Shown: positions 29,663 to 36,865 of the stretch, in pieces
Numbering within the stretch: position 1 is the first letter of the stretch
How the letters are laid out: each line of letters begins with the position of its first letter
Source of the DNA: Candidatus Yonathbacteria bacterium
GTDB taxonomy: Bacteria; Patescibacteriota; Minisyncoccia; Phycocordibacterales; JACNGX01
Direction of reading: 5' to 3'
NCBI GenBank assembly: GCA_013334825.1
Contig: JAAXWR010000001.1
Span: forward strand, 406,731-450,058
DNA: 43,328 bases
Made by a program: the position numbers and the translations under genes
The notes under the pieces: model-generated
Seen by the model: only the letters and a program-made list of their open reading frames with translations
Database searches by the model: none
What the model was told of the DNA's origin: nothing

Positions 29663-30286
29663 CTACGCTTTTTTCAACACAATGACCTCTCCTTCTTTTC
29701 CATCAATGTCTTTCTTTTTAAGCGTTGCTTTATCTACCGACTTTACACCTTCCGCTCCTGCTTCTTTCAGGAATTGCTTCATATTTTTCTCATCACCATC
29801 CATAGGAATCACGATGCGCGCGCCCAGTTTATTGGCAAGTTTTTGCGCTTCATCTGGAGGCAAAACTTCACCACCACCGACAGGGACAAAAAGGACATCG
29901 ACTTCATCAAGCGCCTCTTTGAGTTCCTGCGAAAGTTCTCCCGAGTGAAGCGCACCAAGATACACGAGGGTCATCTGTTCGAGAGCAACAATATAGACTA
30001 TGTTTAATCGTTCACGCCCATCACATGTCGTTGGTACAGCATATCCTTTGATGTAGACACCATCCACTTCATATTCTCCTGGTCCTGTAATTGTGAACGG
30101 TTCTTTGCCGTTGTAGGTAACTGACTCGACACCCGCATAATCTGGATGATCAAGGGATACCAAAGCAATATCGGCACCAAAACGAGATACTGATTCTTTT
30201 GAGTCTTTGCTGATGGGATTGAAAGCGAGAACCGTATCGCCAAACTGCACACGCATAAATTGTTTTCCGTAGTACGTAATGATCAT
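29663..30286 (-). CDS. Metallo-beta-lactamase-fold protein with degenerate metal motif
   Basis: MIITYYG, ADIALVSLDHPDY, ITGPGEYEV, VDVLFVPVGG, IVIPM. Confidence 0.85.
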   Translation of the reverse strand: MIITYYGKQFMRVQFGDTVLAFNPISKDSKESVSRFGADIALVSLDHPDYAGVESVTYNGKEPFTITGPGEYEVDGVYIKGYAVPTTCDGRERLNIVYIVALEQMTLVYLGALHSGELSQELKEALDEVDVLFVPVGGGEVLPPDEAQKLANKLGARIVIPMDGDEKNMKQFLKEAGAEGVKSVDKATLKKKDIDGKEGEVIVLKKA

Positions 30287-30382
30287 GCGTGTAGTATACC
30301 AACTCATAAGTTTTTTCGCTAGAGCTTCATACAAAAACGATAAAAAAATACATACCCCACACAAGTGTTCCAAACAGTTATC

Positions 30383-30428
30383 TTCCGCACGGCGAACATA
30401 TTGCGCGCAATATGTTCGCCGTGCGGAA
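30383..30428. repeat. Perfect 46-bp palindrome
   Basis: TTCCGCACGGCGAACATATTGCG|CGCAATATGTTCGCCGTGCGGAA, no loop or mismatch. Confidence 0.9.
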
Positions 30429-30468
30429 ATGTCTGAGATATATGCCTATTTCTGTCGTACGAAAATGC

Positions 30469-30573
30469 TTGACAAAGTATACACAATATGCTATACTTTT
30501 CCTATCAGTGAGGTGCGGAAACATTCTGAGCAATATGCAAATGCTTGACAAATAATTCAACATCTGCTATAAT
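30469..30573 (+). promoter_or_regulatory. Tandem sigma70-type promoters P1 and P2
   Basis: TTGACA(30469)-N17-TATACT(30492) and TTGACA(30545)-N17-TATAAT(30568), both with an extended -10 TG. Confidence 0.85.
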
Positions 30574-30584
30574 ACTCTCATACC

Positions 30585-30894
30585 ATACAGGGACGGAAGC
30601 ACCACCTTACAACATCATATATTCTACGTCTCTGGGGAGGGACATGACACGAGTCATTGTAGTGTACGTGTGCGAGAAAGCGATTGCTGTCTCTCTTCCC
30701 TATTTATACACTTTTCAGGAAGAGAGACGCCAATCGCTTTTTTGTCAGGAGAGCGACGGAGATGAGGGTTTGTTGGATACGGGGCATACATATATTTGGC
30801 CTTTCGTATCTCACTCACCTTCGCCGCCCTCTTGGCACATACAAGCCAAGATTGTACCTTACGTCCGAACCAATGGGGGCATGACTCCCTGTAT
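30585..30894 (+). ncRNA. Candidate large structured leader RNA
   Basis: Starts just after P2; closing pair ATACAGGGA/TCCCTGTAT; internal stems at about 30674-30742 and 30746-30834; GTGTGC/GCACAT. Confidence 0.6.
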
Positions 30895-30907
30895 CGGACA
30901 ACACCTG

Positions 30908-31157
30908 AGGGGAAACGTGACGGACATACTGTCCGACGCGATTCCCCTTCTCCAATCAGCTGGCGATTGCGTGTGAAGCGCAATCACCAGCTGATAGAGA
31001 ATTGTTCTTTGTTAAATATGAAATATAAAATATGAATAAAAAAACCTATTGAACATCATGTACAGCGTATGGGTGACGAGTAATTTTATACTTACGACTC
31101 GTCCCCCGCACGCTGTACATAGATTTCAATAATTTAACGGGCCGTCAGAAATGGCGG
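30908..31157 (+). repeat. Array spacer module 1
   Basis: H1 30908-30948, H2 30949-31000, TGTTCTTT 31003, H3 31047-31131 (ATGTACAGCGT/ACGCTGTACAT), small hairpin 31142-31157. Confidence 0.75.
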
Positions 31158-31164
31158 TAAAAAA

Positions 31165-31392
31165 ATGAAAGCGACTTCAAAAAAATCAACAAAATTCCAG
31201 CCCCGCAATATCGTGGAGTTGGCGCACGCAGTTGCAACTGGGGAACACATACCCCAGGCAACACAAGCGCAGTCAGTCGCCGAGAGGCGTGCGACTGCAA
31301 AAAAAACGGCGATGATTACCCCGCAGGGTAACGTCGTCGTCGCCGCGTCATACGCGGTGGACGTTATTAAAGAGGAGTGGGCTAAAAAGTAG
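31165..31392 (+). CDS. Small hypothetical protein (cassette 1)
   Basis: 75-aa ORF fitting exactly between modules 1 and 2. Confidence 0.7.
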   Translation: MKATSKKSTKFQPRNIVELAHAVATGEHIPQATQAQSVAERRATAKKTAMITPQGNVVVAASYAVDVIKEEWAKK

Positions 31393-31403
31393 CACTCCTT
31401 TTC

Positions 31404-31579
31404 AGGGAAGGGTATCGGATCACACCGACCCCTTCCCTCTCTTATTCAGACCATGAGTCAATCATTCGTGTTCTGAAAGAGAGTCTGTTCTTTAATAACG
31501 CCTGTCTATTTCAAAATGACGAAACGGAATGATATATTTCAATTATTTATTTCGTTTCGTCGTTTTGAGAGAAACGGCG
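31404..31579 (+). repeat. Array spacer module 2
   Basis: H1 31404-31438, H2 31439-31483, TGTTCTTT 31486, H3 31499-31579. Confidence 0.75.
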
Positions 31580-31584
31580 ATAAC

Positions 31585-31704
31585 AAGGGAATTGACCCCC
31601 TTTGTAAACGCGACATATAAAAAGAGGTTATTGAAAGGTTCTCTGTCGCAAGGATTGATGAAAATCCAAAGGTCATGGAACTTCATCAATTACAAACTTC
31701 CTTT
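31585..31704 (+). ncRNA. Candidate structured RNA occupying cassette 2
   Basis: Stems TTTGTA/TACAAA, GCGACA/TGTCGC and ATTGATGAA/TTCATCAAT; possible TGACC/GGTCA pseudoknot. Confidence 0.4.
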
Positions 31705-31715
31705 CTACACTTTGC

Positions 31716-31992
31716 AGGGAGATGTGTTACGTTACAGCGTAAACATCTTCCTCCCATTTCAGGACACGAATAAACCTTCGCGTTTTGAAACAGGGATTTG
31801 TTCTTTAGAAACTAAAATAAAAAATATTAAACAAAAAATAAAAAACTCCCCATTGGAACAATGACGGAGCAGATGAGTGAATTATTGCTATACACACCCA
31901 TCCGCCGTATCGCTGTTTTGTATGGCGAAATCTTATTGCGCGCGTAGCGGATTAAAACATCTTTTTTAACGCCGCGACGCGGCAAAACGGAG
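31716..31992 (+). repeat. Array spacer module 3
   Basis: H1 31716-31752, H2 31753-31795, TGTTCTTT 31799, imperfect H3 about 31850-31925, small hairpin GCCGCGACGCGGC, GGAG RBS. Confidence 0.7.
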
Positions 31993-31999
31993 AATTATT

Positions 32000-32476
32000 G
32001 TGAGTAAGAAATATCTTCCTATGATTTTAGATGACGAAACCTATATTCCATCTCTGATGGATGGATGGTCAAAAGATTCTGAGCTTCGGGTCCGTCTTTT
32101 TGACCAGACGGGAAGACTCGACGGTTTGACATTCCGCCAGGCGGCGGGAATCATTGAAAAGGCTACTGGAAACAGTGTCCTGGTCAATCCGTATGACAAG
32201 GAAACCATCTCTTCTCTCGGAGGAGAAGATGGGGGTTATTCCCGGGGAAGTGAAGGTCGTTACCCCGAGACCTACTCCCACAAGGGAGGAGGTCTCACGT
32301 ACATGACTGGGAGCTGGAGGGGGCTTTCCATAAAGCCATCCGACGAAGCCAATCGCTGGTTGCTTGACTGCACACAGTGGTGGAAGGAGTCGGAGAGTTT
32401 TCGAGCTCAGGTCATTGAGGCGGCAGAAGCTGTCTTAAATGATCCTCAGTTCGAGGACATTTCTCTCCCTGAATGA
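32000..32476 (+). CDS. Hypothetical protein (cassette 3)
   Basis: 158-aa ORF with GTG start and GGAG upstream; ends about 10 nt before module 4. Confidence 0.8.
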   Translation: MSKKYLPMILDDETYIPSLMDGWSKDSELRVRLFDQTGRLDGLTFRQAAGIIEKATGNSVLVNPYDKETISSLGGEDGGYSRGSEGRYPETYSHKGGGLTYMTGSWRGLSIKPSDEANRWLLDCTQWWKESESFRAQVIEAAEAVLNDPQFEDISLPE

Positions 32477-32486
32477 GACGTTGCGA

Positions 32487-32695
32487 AGGGAAGTCAGATC
32501 GGTACATCCGACGACTTCCCTCCTTTTTTCAGACCATAAGTATTTCTTGTTGTCTGATAGAGGTTTTGTTCTTTGAAAAAGTTTCTCCTGTTGTTGTTCA
32601 ACTTCGCGTACGGCATCGGGTCGGTGATGGTCATCGGTCGGATGCTGTACGGGAAGACAAAAAATCGCCGCGCGTTCGGCAAAAAAGGAGGAATT
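32487..32695 (+). repeat. Array spacer module 4
   Basis: H1 32487-32521, H2 32522-32563, TGTTCTTTGAAAAA 32567, 53-nt H3 32603-32655, small hairpin, AGGAGG. Confidence 0.85.
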
Positions 32696-32857
32696 ATGAA
32701 TATATTTCTTGCGGGGCTTTGTGCCCTCGCAGCGGTGGCATTGTTGGTCGCTGCCGCCACCGTCGGCACGGGGATGCTCGTGCTGACACAGATGCAGACG
32801 GCCGCGGCATTCGTTGCTGCCGCCGTGTTGCTCGCCAAGGTGGCAAACAGATTATGA
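32696..32857 (+). CDS. 53-aa hydrophobic (two-TM) peptide (cassette 4)
   Basis: AGGAGG-AATT-ATG; MNIFLAGLCALAAVALLVAAATVGTGMLVLTQMQTAAAFVAAAVLLAKVANRL. Confidence 0.7.
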   Translation: MNIFLAGLCALAAVALLVAAATVGTGMLVLTQMQTAAAFVAAAVLLAKVANRL

Positions 32858-32864
32858 CGGGTTC

Positions 32865-33047
32865 GAGGAGCTACCCATAATACAAAGCTCCTCACTCTAT
32901 CCGGATGTGTGTCCGGACTGATGAGCCGAAAACGGCGAAAGAGCTTGTTCTTTTTATTATCGCGTCCTTCTGCGGGGAGATACTCTCTCCCCTTTCTCCC
33001 CACAGAAGGACGTGAATCAATAATAAAAATAGGTGCTAGAAAGAGCA
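32865..33047 (+). repeat. Array spacer module 5 (ribozyme-containing)
   Basis: H1 GAGGAGCT/AGCTCCTC 32865-32893, hammerhead in the H2 slot, TGTTCTTT 32946, H3 32960-33015. Confidence 0.75.
32895..32943 (+). ncRNA. Hammerhead ribozyme, type III
   Basis: CTC-TA | TCCGGA-TGTGTG-TCCGGA (stem I) CTGATGA GCCG-AAAA-CGGC (stem II) GAAA-GAG; complete catalytic core, predicted cleavage after A32899. Confidence 0.85.
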
Positions 33048-33052
33048 AAAAA

Positions 33053-33286
33053 ATGAAAATAACAATAAGCACGAGCCATAAACTCGACGCTTGGCAGATG
33101 AAAATGATCTGCCGAATTCTGAGTGTCCGGCTCAACGAGGCGCAAAGGCAGTGTCTCGTATCAATCGCCGAAGCTTTAGAAGATGCGACGGCATATCTCC
33201 CGGTGAGACGAAAAGTCCACCGGCGGTGGTTTTCTCGAAAGGAGGATCAGGTTATCGATGTTCTTTTCGACATGAAGAACTCCTGA
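33053..33286 (+). CDS. Small hypothetical protein (cassette 5)
   Basis: 77-aa ORF starting MKITIS after an A-rich leader; ends 7 nt before module 6. Confidence 0.65.
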   Translation: MKITISTSHKLDAWQMKMICRILSVRLNEAQRQCLVSIAEALEDATAYLPVRRKVHRRWFSRKEDQVIDVLFDMKNS

Positions 33287-33293
33287 ATTTTTC

Positions 33294-33506
33294 GGAGAAA
33301 CATGCGCCCCCAAGGCCCATGTTTCTCCCTTTTGTTCGGATGACAAACATATCGTTTGTCGTTCGATTGAGGATTTTGTTCTTTGAAAAAGTTTCTCCTT
33401 TGTTTTTTCTGTTCGCGTACGGCATCGGGTCGGTGATGGTCATCGGTCGGATGCTGTACGGGAAATATATCAACAACAAAAAACGCCCTTTCGGGCAGGA
33501 GGAACA
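33294..33506 (+). repeat. Array spacer module 6
   Basis: H1 33294-33328, H2 33329-33372, TGTTCTTTGAAAAA 33377, 53-nt H3 33412-33464, GCCCTTTCGGGC, AGGAGG. Confidence 0.85.
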
Positions 33507-33854
33507 ATGACAGAAATAAATAAGAAGCAGATAATAATCCGCCTGGGGAGTGGAAAAAGATTCACAGCGTGGATTGATTTTTCCCCATCAAATTATGCAG
33601 GGATAGCTGAAATTGTAGGAGATGCGTTCCCGCAATTCAGACGAGGTCGTTGGGGGAATTACCCCCACTATACGTACTCCAGGATGTGGAGTACGGGTGG
33701 TGGTTTATCGGAGGCATGGGAAATCTTTGGTGACACGGTGTACGTCACCGATGATTTTTCAACGCTGAGGGGCGACGAGATCCCCCTAAACACAGAGGGG
33801 GAAGTAACCCCCGTTAGCAGACAACCTCTTATGAGGGAGTATGCCAACTGGTGA
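33507..33854 (+). CDS. Hypothetical protein (cassette 6)
   Basis: 115-aa ORF with AGGAGG RBS. Confidence 0.8.
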   Translation: MTEINKKQIIIRLGSGKRFTAWIDFSPSNYAGIAEIVGDAFPQFRRGRWGNYPHYTYSRMWSTGGGLSEAWEIFGDTVYVTDDFSTLRGDEIPLNTEGEVTPVSRQPLMREYANW

Positions 33855-33864
33855 CTTTTAACTT

Positions 33865-34023
33865 GGGAGACTTGCGACGAAACACAAGGCAAGTCTCCCC
33901 TTATTATTGAGCATTTCTTTGCGAAGGAATGTTCATAGTGGGATTGTTCTTTGAAATATGCTCTATTATCACATACGGCATTTAGGTGAAAAATCTTTTT
34001 CGCTTAAATGCTGTATGGGATAG
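33865..34023 (+). repeat. Array spacer module 7
   Basis: H1 33865-33899, H2 33900-33942, TGTTCTTTGAAA 33945, H3 33963-34023 (CATACGGCAT/ATGCTGTATG). Confidence 0.8.
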
Positions 34024-34045
34024 AAAAAATTAAAAAAGAAAAAGT

Positions 34046-34420
34046 ATGATTAACAAATATGCTGGTGCCGTTGAAAGCGCTTTTGCGCTTTCAAATGATG
34101 AAATGGAAGAACTTGAGAGGTTTCCCGAGGTGACTCGAGGAAGTTCCATTTCTTTCTTGAAAGGAGTATGCGGATGCGCCCGCCTGTTTCTCCAAGAGAC
34201 AGGCGTGGAGGAACATCTGTCTCCTCTATGTTTTTCTGAGGAAGACTTTTACGGCTCCACGGTCGACGGTCGTGTTGTCGTACTGAGAGTTCTCGACTAC
34301 GACATGGGGGATGTCGTAGTGGGAATCTTTTTCTCCTCCGCAATCGCCAACCCCGAAGAGATTCAGAAGGCGATTGCCGAAGGAGAAAAACCGCTCTTCT
34401 ACAGAGCAGAAATCGCATAA
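34046..34420 (+). CDS. Acidic hypothetical protein (cassette 7)
   Basis: 124-aa ORF between modules 7 and 8. Confidence 0.75.
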   Translation: MINKYAGAVESAFALSNDEMEELERFPEVTRGSSISFLKGVCGCARLFLQETGVEEHLSPLCFSEEDFYGSTVDGRVVVLRVLDYDMGDVVVGIFFSSAIANPEEIQKAIAEGEKPLFYRAEIA

Positions 34421-34427
34421 TGTTTCT

Positions 34428-34656
34428 GGAGGCAACGTGCTATGGTTCACGCACGTTCCTCCCCTTTGTTCGAATGACAAACATATCGTTTGCCATTCGA
34501 TAGAGGTTTTGTTCTTTGAAAAAGATTCTCCTGTTGTTGAGTTCGCGTACGGCATCGGGTCGGTGATGGTCATCGGTCGGATGCTGTACGGGAAGAAAAA
34601 TATCAACAACCGCTGCGAAAATGCAGCACATCTACCGCTTTAGCGGAGGAGGAATT
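34428..34656 (+). repeat. Array spacer module 8
   Basis: H1 34428-34462, H2 34463-34506, TGTTCTTTGAAAAA 34510, 53-nt H3 34542-34594, CCGCTTTAGCGG, GGAGG. Confidence 0.85.
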
Positions 34657-35289
34657 ATGGGAAAGTCATTCAAGGTTTTTACAATCGAGAGCGGCTCCGT
34701 TAAGGAAGGAGCCGTCGTCGAAAAACTCACCCTCAAGGGGGCTGGGATTGATATCCCTGCCATCTTTGTGGGCGAGCAGGGGCGTGGTCGCGAACGAGGA
34801 GTCCTGCCTGTCCAACTTCCTTCCGCGCTTCAGGCGGAGTGGAAAGAAAAAGGACGGGTCCGGATTTCTTCCGCCGAGGTCGGCACGACCAAAGCGGGAA
34901 AGCCAAAGCTCTACGCTCGGTCCGGCGAAGGCGTGGACGCGGATGACGCCGTCATCTGCGTTTTCAGAACCCACATCGGTTTCCGTGGTGGAAACTCCCA
35001 CACCGGCGACCGCACAGGGGAAGTAGAAAAGGATGCGTACGGTGACGAGCGTATCAGATTTCACCCATTCCCCGGTGAGATTTTTGTAAGTGGTCATATC
35101 GCCCAGGGTGATGCCGGCCGCATGGGTGGCGGTCAGCAAATGGTCGCCACAATGCCCAAGGGCACTGTGTTCCGCACTGGATACAGTGGCCGCCTCTACG
35201 GCGGTCCCGCCGCCCACTATTACCTGTGGAACGGCGAGCAACTGCTCGCCATGACATGGGATGAGAGGGTCGCCTCGGACATTTTTTAA
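34657..35289 (+). CDS. Gly-rich hypothetical protein (cassette 8)
   Basis: 210-aa ORF from MGKSF with GGAGG RBS; visibly GC-richer than the host genes. Confidence 0.85.
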   Translation: MGKSFKVFTIESGSVKEGAVVEKLTLKGAGIDIPAIFVGEQGRGRERGVLPVQLPSALQAEWKEKGRVRISSAEVGTTKAGKPKLYARSGEGVDADDAVICVFRTHIGFRGGNSHTGDRTGEVEKDAYGDERIRFHPFPGEIFVSGHIAQGDAGRMGGGQQMVATMPKGTVFRTGYSGRLYGGPAAHYYLWNGEQLLAMTWDERVASDIF

Positions 35290-35359
35290 CCTGAGAGATC
35301 CCAAATACTAACCGGATACGAAATCCAACGTGATTCCATATCCGGTAACTTTTCGGAGT

Positions 35360-35513
35360 GGAGACTTGCGACGAAACACGAAGCAAGTCTCCCCTTATTA
35401 TTGAGCATTTCTTTGCGAAGGAATGTTCATAGTGAGGTATGCGCAAAATCTGAATCCATGTACTTTTCTGGGAAGACATTTCCTTCCCCGTCTTCCCAGA
35501 AAAGTACGTGGGG
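35360..35513 (+). repeat. Terminal array module 9 (lacks TGTTCTTT)
   Basis: H1+H2 35360-35437 nearly identical to module 7, then TATGCGCAAA in place of the motif; H3-like stem 35455-35513. Confidence 0.8.
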
Positions 35514-35716
35514 ATATATGGTGCGTGAATATGGGCGGCGCGAAGCGCCGCCCATATTGTTCTATTGTGTATTCCAACTATCCATGCTATTGTACATCCA
35601 TTACCAGCGGAATGCGCGAAGTAACCCTCCTGTCCGACTCCCTATACGACACCATCGGCACGAGACCCTCGCACACATACCGATTCCGCCATCGTGCGGT
35701 TTTTTATTTTATATAT

Positions 35717-36865
35717 ATGAGTACAGACGAAATAACCAATACAGATGCTGTTGCTACAGAAGAAATTCTCGAGACAACAGAACAGGCAGATAATAGTAAT
35801 CATCCGATGACGGCACTTGTTGCTGATTCCCCTGCTCCTCCGGCTATCGGCGATCTTGTGGAAGGACCAGTCATTGCTATCGAACGCAATGCAGTATTCG
35901 TTGACTTGGCACCTTTTGGTACAGGTACCATCTATGGTCGTGAACTCTTGAACGCACGTGATGTTATCCGCCACACAAGCATTGGTGACACCATCACTGC
36001 CAAGGTTGTGGACGCAGAAAATGAGAATGGATACATTGAACTCTCTCTCAAGGAGGCACGTCAAGCTCTCATTTGGACAGACGCTGAAGACGCCATCCGC
36101 AAGAAAACACTCCTTGAACTTACCGTCAAAGAAGCAAATAAGGGTGGGCTTATCATGGAATGGCAGGGTATCGCAGGCTTTCTCCCCGCTTCCCAACTTT
36201 CTACCGACCACTATCCACGCGTTGAAGGTGGCGACAAAGATAAAATCACCAATGAATTGCGCAAATTGGTAGGTGAAAAAATCTCTGTCATGATTCTTTC
36301 CGCAAATCCCAAAGAAGGTAAGCTTATCTTCTCTGAAAAAGATATTGCAGATAAAGACCGTACGGAACTTGCTGGAAGACATGCTGTTGGCGATGTCATC
36401 GAAGGACCAGTAACAGGTATTGTAGACTTTGGTGTCTTTGTAAAAGTTGAAGAAGGTCTCGAAGGACTCGTTCACATTTCTGAAATTGACTGGGGACTCG
36501 TCGATGATCCGAAACATTTTTGTAAAGTCGGCGAAACCGCCAAAGCAAAAATTATTGAGATCAAAGATGGTAAAGTATCCCTTTCTATCAAAGCACTCAA
36601 GGACAATCCTTGGAAAACTGCGGGTGAACACTTTAAAAAGGGCGACAAAGTAAATGGTATTGTTATCAAATTCAATCGTCACGGTGCGCTTGTGTCCATT
36701 GAAGAAGGTGTTGCGGGACTCGTTCATGTCTCTGACTTCCCTTCCGAAGAGATGCTTCGTAAGACATTAGAATTGGCAAAAACCTATCCATTTGAAATCT
36801 CTCTTTTCGAACCAAAAGATCAACGTATGACTCTCGTCTATACAGGAGAAAAGAAAGACAAGTAA
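35717..36865 (+). CDS. rpsA: 30S ribosomal protein S1
   Basis: Four S1 domains (GFLPASQL, DFGVFV..EEGLEGLVHISEI, GLVHVSD); start reassigned to MSTDE. Confidence 0.9.
   Translation: MSTDEITNTDAVATEEILETTEQADNSNHPMTALVADSPAPPAIGDLVEGPVIAIERNAVFVDLAPFGTGTIYGRELLNARDVIRHTSIGDTITAKVVDAENENGYIELSLKEARQALIWTDAEDAIRKKTLLELTVKEANKGGLIMEWQGIAGFLPASQLSTDHYPRVEGGDKDKITNELRKLVGEKISVMILSANPKEGKLIFSEKDIADKDRTELAGRHAVGDVIEGPVTGIVDFGVFVKVEEGLEGLVHISEIDWGLVDDPKHFCKVGETAKAKIIEIKDGKVSLSIKALKDNPWKTAGEHFKKGDKVNGIVIKFNRHGALVSIEEGVAGLVHVSDFPSEEMLRKTLELAKTYPFEISLFEPKDQRMTLVYTGEKKDK

Follow-up and report, generated by a model that had tools for sequence, protein, structure and literature searches.

Our study concerns a self-cleaving RNA motif in a 43,328-nucleotide stretch of the chromosome of Candidatus Yonathbacteria bacterium (GCA_013334825.1, contig JAAXWR010000001.1; G000:C3:406731-450058 in our coding), hereafter the window, whose positions are used throughout. 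Comparative sequence analysis confirmed that the motif at 32895-32943, on the + strand, is a genuine type III hammerhead ribozyme of a subfamily that extends across the Candidate Phyla Radiation (CPR, or Patescibacteria). It lies within a 4.9-kb array (30.47-35.56 kb) of small + strand open reading frames (ORFs), whose spacers all follow one plan: first a 3' hairpin (H1), next a boundary element that is either a longer hairpin (H2) or the hammerhead, then a boxA-like site, a long hairpin in the 5' untranslated region (UTR), a Shine-Dalgarno sequence, and then a small orphan ORF. We consider it probable, given these sequences, that self-cleavage after A32899 separates the cassette mRNAs of a single boxA-driven transcript of the array, and that the H2 hairpins are RNase III-type equivalents of the ribozyme.

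A hammerhead subfamily with a short stem III

All the parts of a type III hammerhead could be identified. Stem III pairs CUCU (32895-98) with AGAG (32940-43), including the A15.1-U16.1 pair; stem I is a helix of six base pairs (bp), TCCGGA/TCCGGA (32900-05/32912-17), with a TGTGTG loop; and the 4-bp stem II, GCCG/CGGC (32925-28/32933-36), has an AAAA loop and G10.1-C11.1 as its closing pair. The core is made of CUGAUGA (CTGATGA at 32918-32924) and GAA (32937-39, within the GAAA of 32937-32940). Every invariant position is in place (C3 U4 G5 A6 N7 G8 A9, G12 A13 A14, and an H17 other than G), and loops close stems I and II, leaving stem III open, as in the type III layout. The triplet is CUA, with A32899 as H17, so that cleavage is predicted between A32899 and U32900. 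An initial annotation had described the core, the three stems, the loop of stem I and the triplet in these very terms, and all of them were recovered on reading the sequence. It had also called the whole a canonical hammerhead consensus, a claim reinforced by a strict type III descriptor (exact CTGATGA and GAAA, U-H, no fewer than 3 bp in a stem II closed by G...C, no fewer than 4 bp in stem I, and three or more further stem III pairs). The descriptor had one match in the genome of 838,881 bases, the site at 32895-32943. On both strands of 40 genomes of equal size, simulated as first-order Markov sequences, it had no match.

The motif is not an isolated occurrence. A blastn search with positions 32860-32960 against 41 related genomes returned a 70-nt match in one of them (G039) and several in another (G007), and Rfam aligns these as hammerheads at 24.9-44.4 bits. 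We built a covariance model, R1, from seven copies (that of the window, that of G039 and five of G007; alignment A2), which gives the window site 72.2 bits, inside the range of the family. R1 matched 37 of 151 genomes sampled from the order, G000 counted, at E <= 0.01 (36 of 131 genera), and 17 of 151 genomes, again with G000, in a phylum-wide sample at E <= 0.001. The matches tend to be clustered, with six in G007, eight each in G108 and G122, and five within 1.7 kb in G082. The consensus of the family reads CUGU-H, a stem I of 6 bp whose loop is UGUGUR or UGAAA, CUGAUGA, a 4-bp stem II with AAAA, and GAA-ACAG(A); the window copy agrees with it, having CUCU/AGAG as stem III. The conservation of UGUGUR in loop 1 and AAAA in loop 2 across the family is consistent with a tertiary contact between these loops, the kind of contact by which type III hammerheads can be active at physiological Mg2+.

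Covariation argues for the same structure. The 45 R1 matches in the loci that we retrieved give 44 distinct rows (alignment A3), where pair cells are standard in 97.6% of cases against 69.9% in shuffled alignments, and where double-change cells number 182 against 43.4, a value that none of the 500 shuffles attained. When the 3' partner is displaced by 1-3 columns, pairing is 35-54%. The rows are related sequences, and A3 was fitted to the R1 structure and so favours it, but the signal is far above both controls in spite of this fitting and kinship. Double changes occur at all six pairs of stem I. The A15.1-U16.1 pair is always U-A, and for G10.1-C11.1 40 of the 44 rows have G-C. Variation between strains points in the same direction. 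We compared the DNA contigs of four coded runs over positions 32400-33500, and one contig of X3, roughly 93% identical to the window, spans 32663-33098 with 28 differences and 5 gaps. Among the differences listed for it none falls between 32897 and 32939. On its flanks, T32896C accompanies changes in the 3' strand (a G inserted after 32940, G32943T and C32944T), and the U-A pair of stem III becomes C-G.

The initial annotation had warned that stem III is short and that activity was thus not guaranteed. The stem has indeed only 4 bp, but the concern is eased because stems III of 4-5 bp are the rule in the whole family and because another helix ends 0-3 nt upstream. The latter is found as a helix of at least 6 bp in 34 of the 44 copies, against 35% of random positions. 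In the window it is H1 (GAGGAGCT at 32865-72, AGCTCCTC at 32886-93), which immediately precedes the hammerhead. H1 may be part of an H-type pseudoknot (32859..32893, + strand) that ends 1 nt before stem III, with S1 formed by GGGT (32859-62) and ACCC (32873-76), TC as L1, H1 as S2, and the A-rich ATAATACAA (32877-85) as L3. Similar arrangements, in the order S1a, L1 (UUY-like, 1-3 nt), S2a, S1b, A-rich L3 (3-11 nt), S2b, recur in the family. Under a strict definition they occur in 16 of 37 hairpin-bearing copies, compared with 6.5% of hairpin-bearing random sites (binomial 3e-10, a value computed over related genomes that are not independent). The 20 loosely matching cases use at least eight different complementary spellings of S1: GGGT/ACCC (in the window), AGAG/CUCU, UGGUU/AACCA, AGGUU/AACCU, AUGGU/ACCAU, AUGG/CCAU, AGGU/ACCU and AAGAG/CUCUU. 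A MAFFT alignment of the pseudoknots (A5) was out of structural register and was left out of the pair counting. We also noticed the arrangement, often as GGUUYGAGG...UAAAA...CCUC, 5' of stem III in L013, L020, L023, L024, L025, L026, L028, L035 and L037. A pseudoknot of this kind beside hammerheads is not known to have been described, although our literature searches were not aimed at this point.

Proteins encoded beside the 45 copies have almost no mutual similarity, and hence the subfamily has no conserved partner gene. Two loci of different genera (L030 and L041, in G135 and G096) have a hammerhead in front of rpsO, the gene of ribosomal protein S15, and elsewhere others precede dcd, holB or response-regulator genes, so the subfamily is not confined to orphan cassettes. 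The genome of the window has a second hammerhead at C2:126380-126438 on the - strand (L002:1499-1557, -), with 48.8 bits for R1 and 17.5 bits for RF00008, the Rfam family of type III hammerheads. Its core reads CCGAUGA (U4 to C), a variant shared with L029 that may be tolerated or inactive.

The boundary slot and the boxA-like site

The ribozyme stands where other spacers have a hairpin. In alignment A4, made of eight modules of the window and one spacer of G007, it lies between the 3' arm of H1 and the motif TGTTCTTT, and its CTCT/AGAG base aligns with CCTC/GAGG-type base helices of the other spacers. The alignment thus bears out the earlier proposal that it fills the H2 slot and mirrors the base of H2. 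The H2 hairpins of the seven other spacers are irregular, 16-20 bp long, and stable when folded alone (-16 to -32 kcal/mol, z -3.9 to -7.8). All are on the + strand and precede a boxA-like site: M1 (30950..31014) has H2 at 30950-31002 (-31.6 kcal/mol, z -7.5) and GTTCTTTGTTA at 31004-31014; M2 (31434..31497) has H2 at 31434-31485 and, at 31487-31497, GTTCTTTAATA, a perfect match to GYTCTTTAANA; M3 (31752..31810) has GTTCTTTAGAA; and M4 (32519..32578), M6 (33326..33388), M7 (33894..33956) and M8 (34459..34521) all have GTTCTTTGAAA. A terminal module, M9 (35360..35437, +), is a copy of the H1 and H2 of M7 that lacks boxA; after it come a long hairpin and then a terminator-like one at 35528-58.

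Hammerhead and hairpin also alternate in this slot in other genomes. The array of G007 has the same layout between a promoter-like site and a terminator, with five hammerheads and at least one H2-type spacer, and H2-type modules precede GTTCTTT in G039, L032 and L040. Even among close variants of the window the slot can change its content, since a contig of X4 matching 32945-33029 with 17 differences is preceded by ...ATTCGATAGAGGAT, the end of an H2-type hairpin, instead of the ribozyme. It is plausible from this interchange that H2 marks a position of transcript cleavage and that a nuclease takes the place of the ribozyme at the remaining H2 hairpins, as was suggested earlier. These are probably equivalents of the RNase III type: their size suits this enzyme, and the genome has an RNase III gene (G000:C3:160498-160890).

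Other identities of H2 were considered. The H2 hairpins do not seem to be decayed hammerheads: their best R1 scores are 10.2 bits (M2) and 6.9 bits (M4), corresponding to the base helix and GAAA only, and their resemblance to the ribozyme (CUGAUAGAGG, CUGAAAGAG) is suggestive without being significant. An Rfam scan of 30400-35500 by E-value found the hammerhead and no other ribozyme class in H2, and R1 run over the same interval with filters off found no second hammerhead. A reading of the modules as attC sites of integrons was rejected as well, as the consensus of the latter, GTTRRRY, does not fit the motif, and the presence of a ribozyme in the slot argues for a role at the level of RNA.

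Directly after stem III comes TGTTCTTT (32946-53), which, extended as TGTTCTTT(GAA), matches boxA. This match is missing from the initial annotation and changes how the module should be read. Excerpts from Baniulyte et al. (2017, PMC5725501) give the boxA consensus as GYTCTTTAANA and describe boxA sites also before non-rRNA genes, and those from Stagno et al. (2011, PMC3177189) indicate that NusB-NusE reads 8 nt. The boxA-like site of the array is GUUCUUUGAA or GUUCUUUGAAA, and the ribozyme is followed by a variant of it, GUUCUUUUUAU; there, the site GTTCTTTTTAT (32947..32957, +) matches the first 7 nt plus position 10. The motif TGTTCTTT has 12 matches in the window for 3.0 expected and 116 in the genome for about 41 expected, but it clusters only in the array, with nine matches on the + strand in 3.5 kb, eight of them in spacers, and none on that strand of the window after 34510. 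The association also holds across the family: GTTCTTT begins 1-4 nt after stem III in 14 of the 44 copies when exact, and in 26 when up to one mismatch is accepted, compared with 0.46% and 3.9% of random positions, respectively.

The organism's own rRNA leader can serve for comparison. Upstream of its 16S rRNA gene (C3:75526-77238) stand TTGACT-17-TATAAT, then a hairpin of 6 bp, and then GCTCTTTGACAA, in the classical order promoter-boxB-boxA, and the GTTCTTTGAAA of M4, M6, M7 and M8 matches this 16S form, which has G at position 8. The 16S leader of G039 has a looser boxA match (GAACTTTGACAA), and the 16S leader region of G007 is uninformative. A NusB gene is encoded (NusB-domain match at G000:C3:159477-159860). 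The matches to the consensus and to the 16S leader lead us to regard TGTTCTTT as a boxA-like element and a candidate loading site for NusB/NusE (S10). Two other identities were discarded. As a -35 box it has no -10 element at the proper spacing; as the start of a mini-ORF (TTG/ATG-TTC-TTT) it fails because in many relatives the preceding triplet is no start codon, and because indels between three repeated leaders break the frame. The 16S gene is unlinked to the 23S gene (G000:C3:64904-68434), which lies 7 kb upstream; the two have separate consensus promoters, and boxA is found in the 16S leader only. The NusB-domain and RNase III genes share a strand and are separated by about 0.6 kb, and the NusB match is in a frame of 322 amino acids (aa), longer than a typical NusB.

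Proposed transcript cleavage and its alternatives

The array most likely forms a single transcription unit, because promoters are found at its head, none comparable within it, and a terminator at its end. We propose that the hammerhead, once transcribed, would fold with its short stem III aided by stacking on the helix of H1 or of the pseudoknot, and that the RNA of the array would be cut after A32899. This would release the upstream 53-codon message with a 42-nt tail made of the pseudoknot and ACUCUA and ending in a 2',3'-cyclic phosphate, a product that could leave quickly because the short stem III is stacked on H1. The downstream message would start by a 5'-OH inside the paired stem I, followed by boxA, a 20-bp hairpin and the 77-codon ORF. 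Its boxA would re-load Nus factors, letting the polymerase read through the next H1 hairpin, and in the other spacers H2 would accomplish the same separation, probably as a substrate of RNase III. The ends of the arrays fit the idea that boxA keeps the polymerase going and that its absence lets it stop: terminal modules without a good boxA precede the terminator in both arrays examined (that of the window and that of G007), which makes two cases only. In G007, no gene follows the last ribozyme, which has a poor boxA and then an intrinsic terminator.

Several observations weigh against this reading. RF00008 gives the site 28.2 bits, under the gathering cut-off of 48.5, and the seven CPR copies scanned with it all score below this value (24.9-44.4 bits). 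The Rfam comparison suggested earlier thus falls short of the curated value: the model aligns end to end with 32894-32944, at E-values of 4.8e-4 (in 401 nt) and 6.1e-3 (in 5.1 kb), but a scan of the window at gathering scores reports five tRNAs and no RF00008. The alignment attributes the shortfall to the short stem III and the short loop of stem II, and the threshold itself reflects curation rather than structure. Stem III has here only four pairs, beyond which comes an A-C mismatch, and the triplet is CUA (as in L040), whereas GUC and GUA are commoner in the subfamily. The boxA-like GTTCTTTTTAT is weaker than others, its positions 8-9 being TT instead of the A/G followed by A that is seen in the consensus and in the other modules, and the 23S leader has no boxA match. 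The H1 hairpins, with the U-rich runs that follow them, might act as terminators, and the array would then not form a single unit. Cutting of H2 is deduced from its geometry. Finally, among the 19 sequencing runs found, no RNA run contains the region, and cleavage is a prediction from the sequence.

Cleavage might serve mainly to lower the expression of the downstream cassette, through decay of the 5'-OH RNA by RNase J, as is reported in Bacillus subtilis for the product of the glmS ribozyme. The genome encodes RNases III, J and Y, and since RNases J and Y are present and RNase E/G was not found (at 97% completeness, as for Rho and RtcB), its decay machinery looks Bacillus-like. Yet, the new 5' end would be held within the 6-bp stem I, without a single-stranded tail, and followed by a 20-bp hairpin, and the last ribozyme of G007 has no downstream gene to damp, which is better explained by the definition of a 3' end. 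We thus find a damper unlikely, if worth keeping in mind. It might also be thought that the slot only needs a fold next to boxA, either as a boxB-like aid to Nus assembly or as an insulator between cistrons, so that cleavage would be incidental or lost. Such a role is suggested by the hairpin that precedes boxA in rRNA leaders, including that of this organism, and by the plain hairpins of seven of the eight boxA-bearing spacers. However, the hairpin of the 16S leader has 6 bp and is thus much shorter than H2 with its 16-20 bp, and the catalytic-core nucleotides, which are irrelevant to a hairpin, are kept in nearly all 44 copies from many genera, making a purely structural role quite improbable.

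The sub-threshold RF00008 score, the short stem III and the fact that this is the sole hammerhead of the array could be taken as signs of a decayed relic or of a chance match, inactive in either case. This is very improbable when the intact invariant positions, the absence of descriptor matches in the simulated genomes, the R1 score within the family range, and the strain variant that keeps a stem III pair by changes on both strands are taken into account. Even less credible is the excision of unit-length RNAs for circularisation, as in retrozymes and viroid-like elements. Hammerheads of the same polarity do flank single genes in relatives, 0.5-0.9 kb apart, and the excerpts available from Perreault et al. 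(PMC3088659) raise this possibility, but the same excerpts report that no circular products were detected. Moreover, the array has one ribozyme only, and RtcB was found neither in this genome nor in any of the five hammerhead-rich relatives searched.

Separation of cassette mRNAs by cleavage could be part of a broader scheme, which we put forward tentatively and would not bet on: a 'cut and re-arm' system, in the style of rRNA operons, for imported cassettes in the CPR bacteria of this order. It would combine a strong promoter, a boxA in each spacer to sustain elongation, interchangeable boundaries of hammerhead or RNase III type, and, in the ribozyme version, a pseudoknot that supports stem III and caps the 3' end of the mRNA against exonucleases.

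These elements have partial counterparts among known systems. The subfamily shares with the type III hammerheads of RF00008 a three-helix junction open at stem III, CUGAUGA...GAA, the A15.1-U16.1 and G10.1-C11.1 pairs, and a NUH triplet. It differs from them by a stem III of 4-5 bp abutted by a hairpin or pseudoknot, by the fixed lengths of stem I (6 bp) and stem II (4 bp), and by the conserved loops UGUGUR and AAAA. Since all seven copies scanned fall below the gathering score of RF00008, the subfamily is invisible to routine annotation. In phage T7, RNase III processing hairpins stand between the cistrons of the early genes, and cleavage leaves hairpins at the mRNA ends. The irregular H2 hairpins, of about two helical turns and between cistrons of what would be one long transcript, resemble them, although here the cutting is proposed from the geometry and the presence of an RNase III gene. 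The boxA-like sites recall those of rRNA leaders (boxB-boxA) and of non-rRNA genes in having GYUCUUU(A/G)A after a hairpin, in their likeness to the GCTCTTTGACAA of the 16S leader and in the presence of NusB. In contrast to rRNA boxA, the motif precedes every cassette of a protein-coding array, its hairpin slot can hold a ribozyme, and binding of NusB/S10 is predicted.

Clustered hammerheads that flank genes have been known since 2011. According to the excerpts from Perreault et al. (2011, PMC3088659), single genes that are not conserved have several hammerheads on their flanks in prophage regions. Processing into gene-length mRNAs is proposed there, and cleavage in vitro is reported for three such tandem arrangements. 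The hammerheads studied here likewise have one polarity and lie between small non-conserved genes. Unlike those prophage arrays, the array of the window is in a CPR chromosome, without detected phage genes (no PHROG match for eight array proteins), and its ribozyme alternates with long hairpins in a fixed slot directly followed by a boxA-like site. We found no account of hammerhead ribozymes of CPR/Patescibacteria in openly searchable full texts, where the candidate papers were judged by title and the opening of the abstract, and none, in the literature searched, of a self-cleaving ribozyme coupled to a Nus-factor loading site 1-4 nt away. The pairing of boxA with a hammerhead appears there, in excerpt, as an engineered ribozyme in an rRNA construct; judged by title and abstract, the other papers that mention both looked unrelated. 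Relative to this literature, the new features are the minimal stem III supported by an adjoining hairpin or pseudoknot, the direct coupling to boxA, and the interchange with long hairpins.

For the role of natural bacterial hammerheads, this locus and its relatives offer a short test case, a few hundred bases long, where ribozyme and plain hairpin share a slot beside an anti-termination signal in organisms with minimal RNA-processing machinery. If the proposed separation of mRNAs is true, it would reveal how cassettes acquired by horizontal transfer are expressed in ultra-small bacteria, and it would provide a natural insulator design for synthetic biology, made of a ribozyme, a boxA and stabilising hairpins.

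Array and genomic context

The window includes ordinary cellular genes (topA, relA/spoT, parB, gyrA, infB, lysS, greA, mraZ/rsmH and T4SS-pilin-like genes), and it is thus part of the chromosome of a small-genome CPR bacterium and not of a phage. The array proteins have no match in Pfam, none in PHROG (eight proteins) and no meaningful one in NCBIfam. The region is richer in GC than the genome (48-50% in the bins of 32-36 kb against 43%). A phage origin was considered and rejected: besides the lack of PHROG matches, comparison of 30000-36000 with 50,697 phage records by distant blastn yielded a single match, of 53 nt.

The ribozyme lies between a cassette ORF for a hydrophobic protein of 53 aa (32696..32857, +) and one for a protein of 77 aa (33053..33286, +), neither with a family match. 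The 5' UTR of the latter has a long hairpin of about 20 bp (32961..33014, +), which microRNA-precursor models match as a generic long hairpin. Two tandem promoters of the sigma-70 type are found at the head of the array on the + strand, TTGACA-17-TATACT (30469-30497) and TTGACA-17-TATAAT (30545-30573), with 11 and 12 matches out of 12, respectively, and both with TG; the promoter scan returned nothing comparable within the array. At the other end, the array is closed at 35528..35558 (+) by a terminator-like hairpin that is rich in GC, has 14 bp and is followed by a T-rich tail.

Two listed ORFs may need revision. The 143-aa ORF at the head of the array (30545-30976) begins inside the TTGACA box of a promoter and is probably no gene, and the 480-aa ORF with an S1 domain (35423-36865) overlaps M9, a long hairpin and the terminator-like hairpin, so that its real start is probably more downstream. 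The leader of about 370 nt behind the promoters has many hairpins (e.g., 30671-30748).

Some contigs of the coded runs, from related strains of the community, join positions that are distant in the window (32659 to 33320 with 367 other letters between them, 32661 to 33345, and 32702 to 33375), such that the two cassettes around the ribozyme are skipped or replaced. The array therefore gains and loses cassettes, apparently by recombination between repeated leaders. A hairpin-forming leader element of about 52 nt (TTCGCGTACGGCATCGGG...GCTGTACGGGAA) is present in three copies (32603-32655, 33412-33464 and 34542-34594), identical by eye, between boxA and the Shine-Dalgarno sequence. In X2 the depth of metagenome contigs climbs over this element from about 137 to 1770-2560, and it must therefore be widely repeated in that community.

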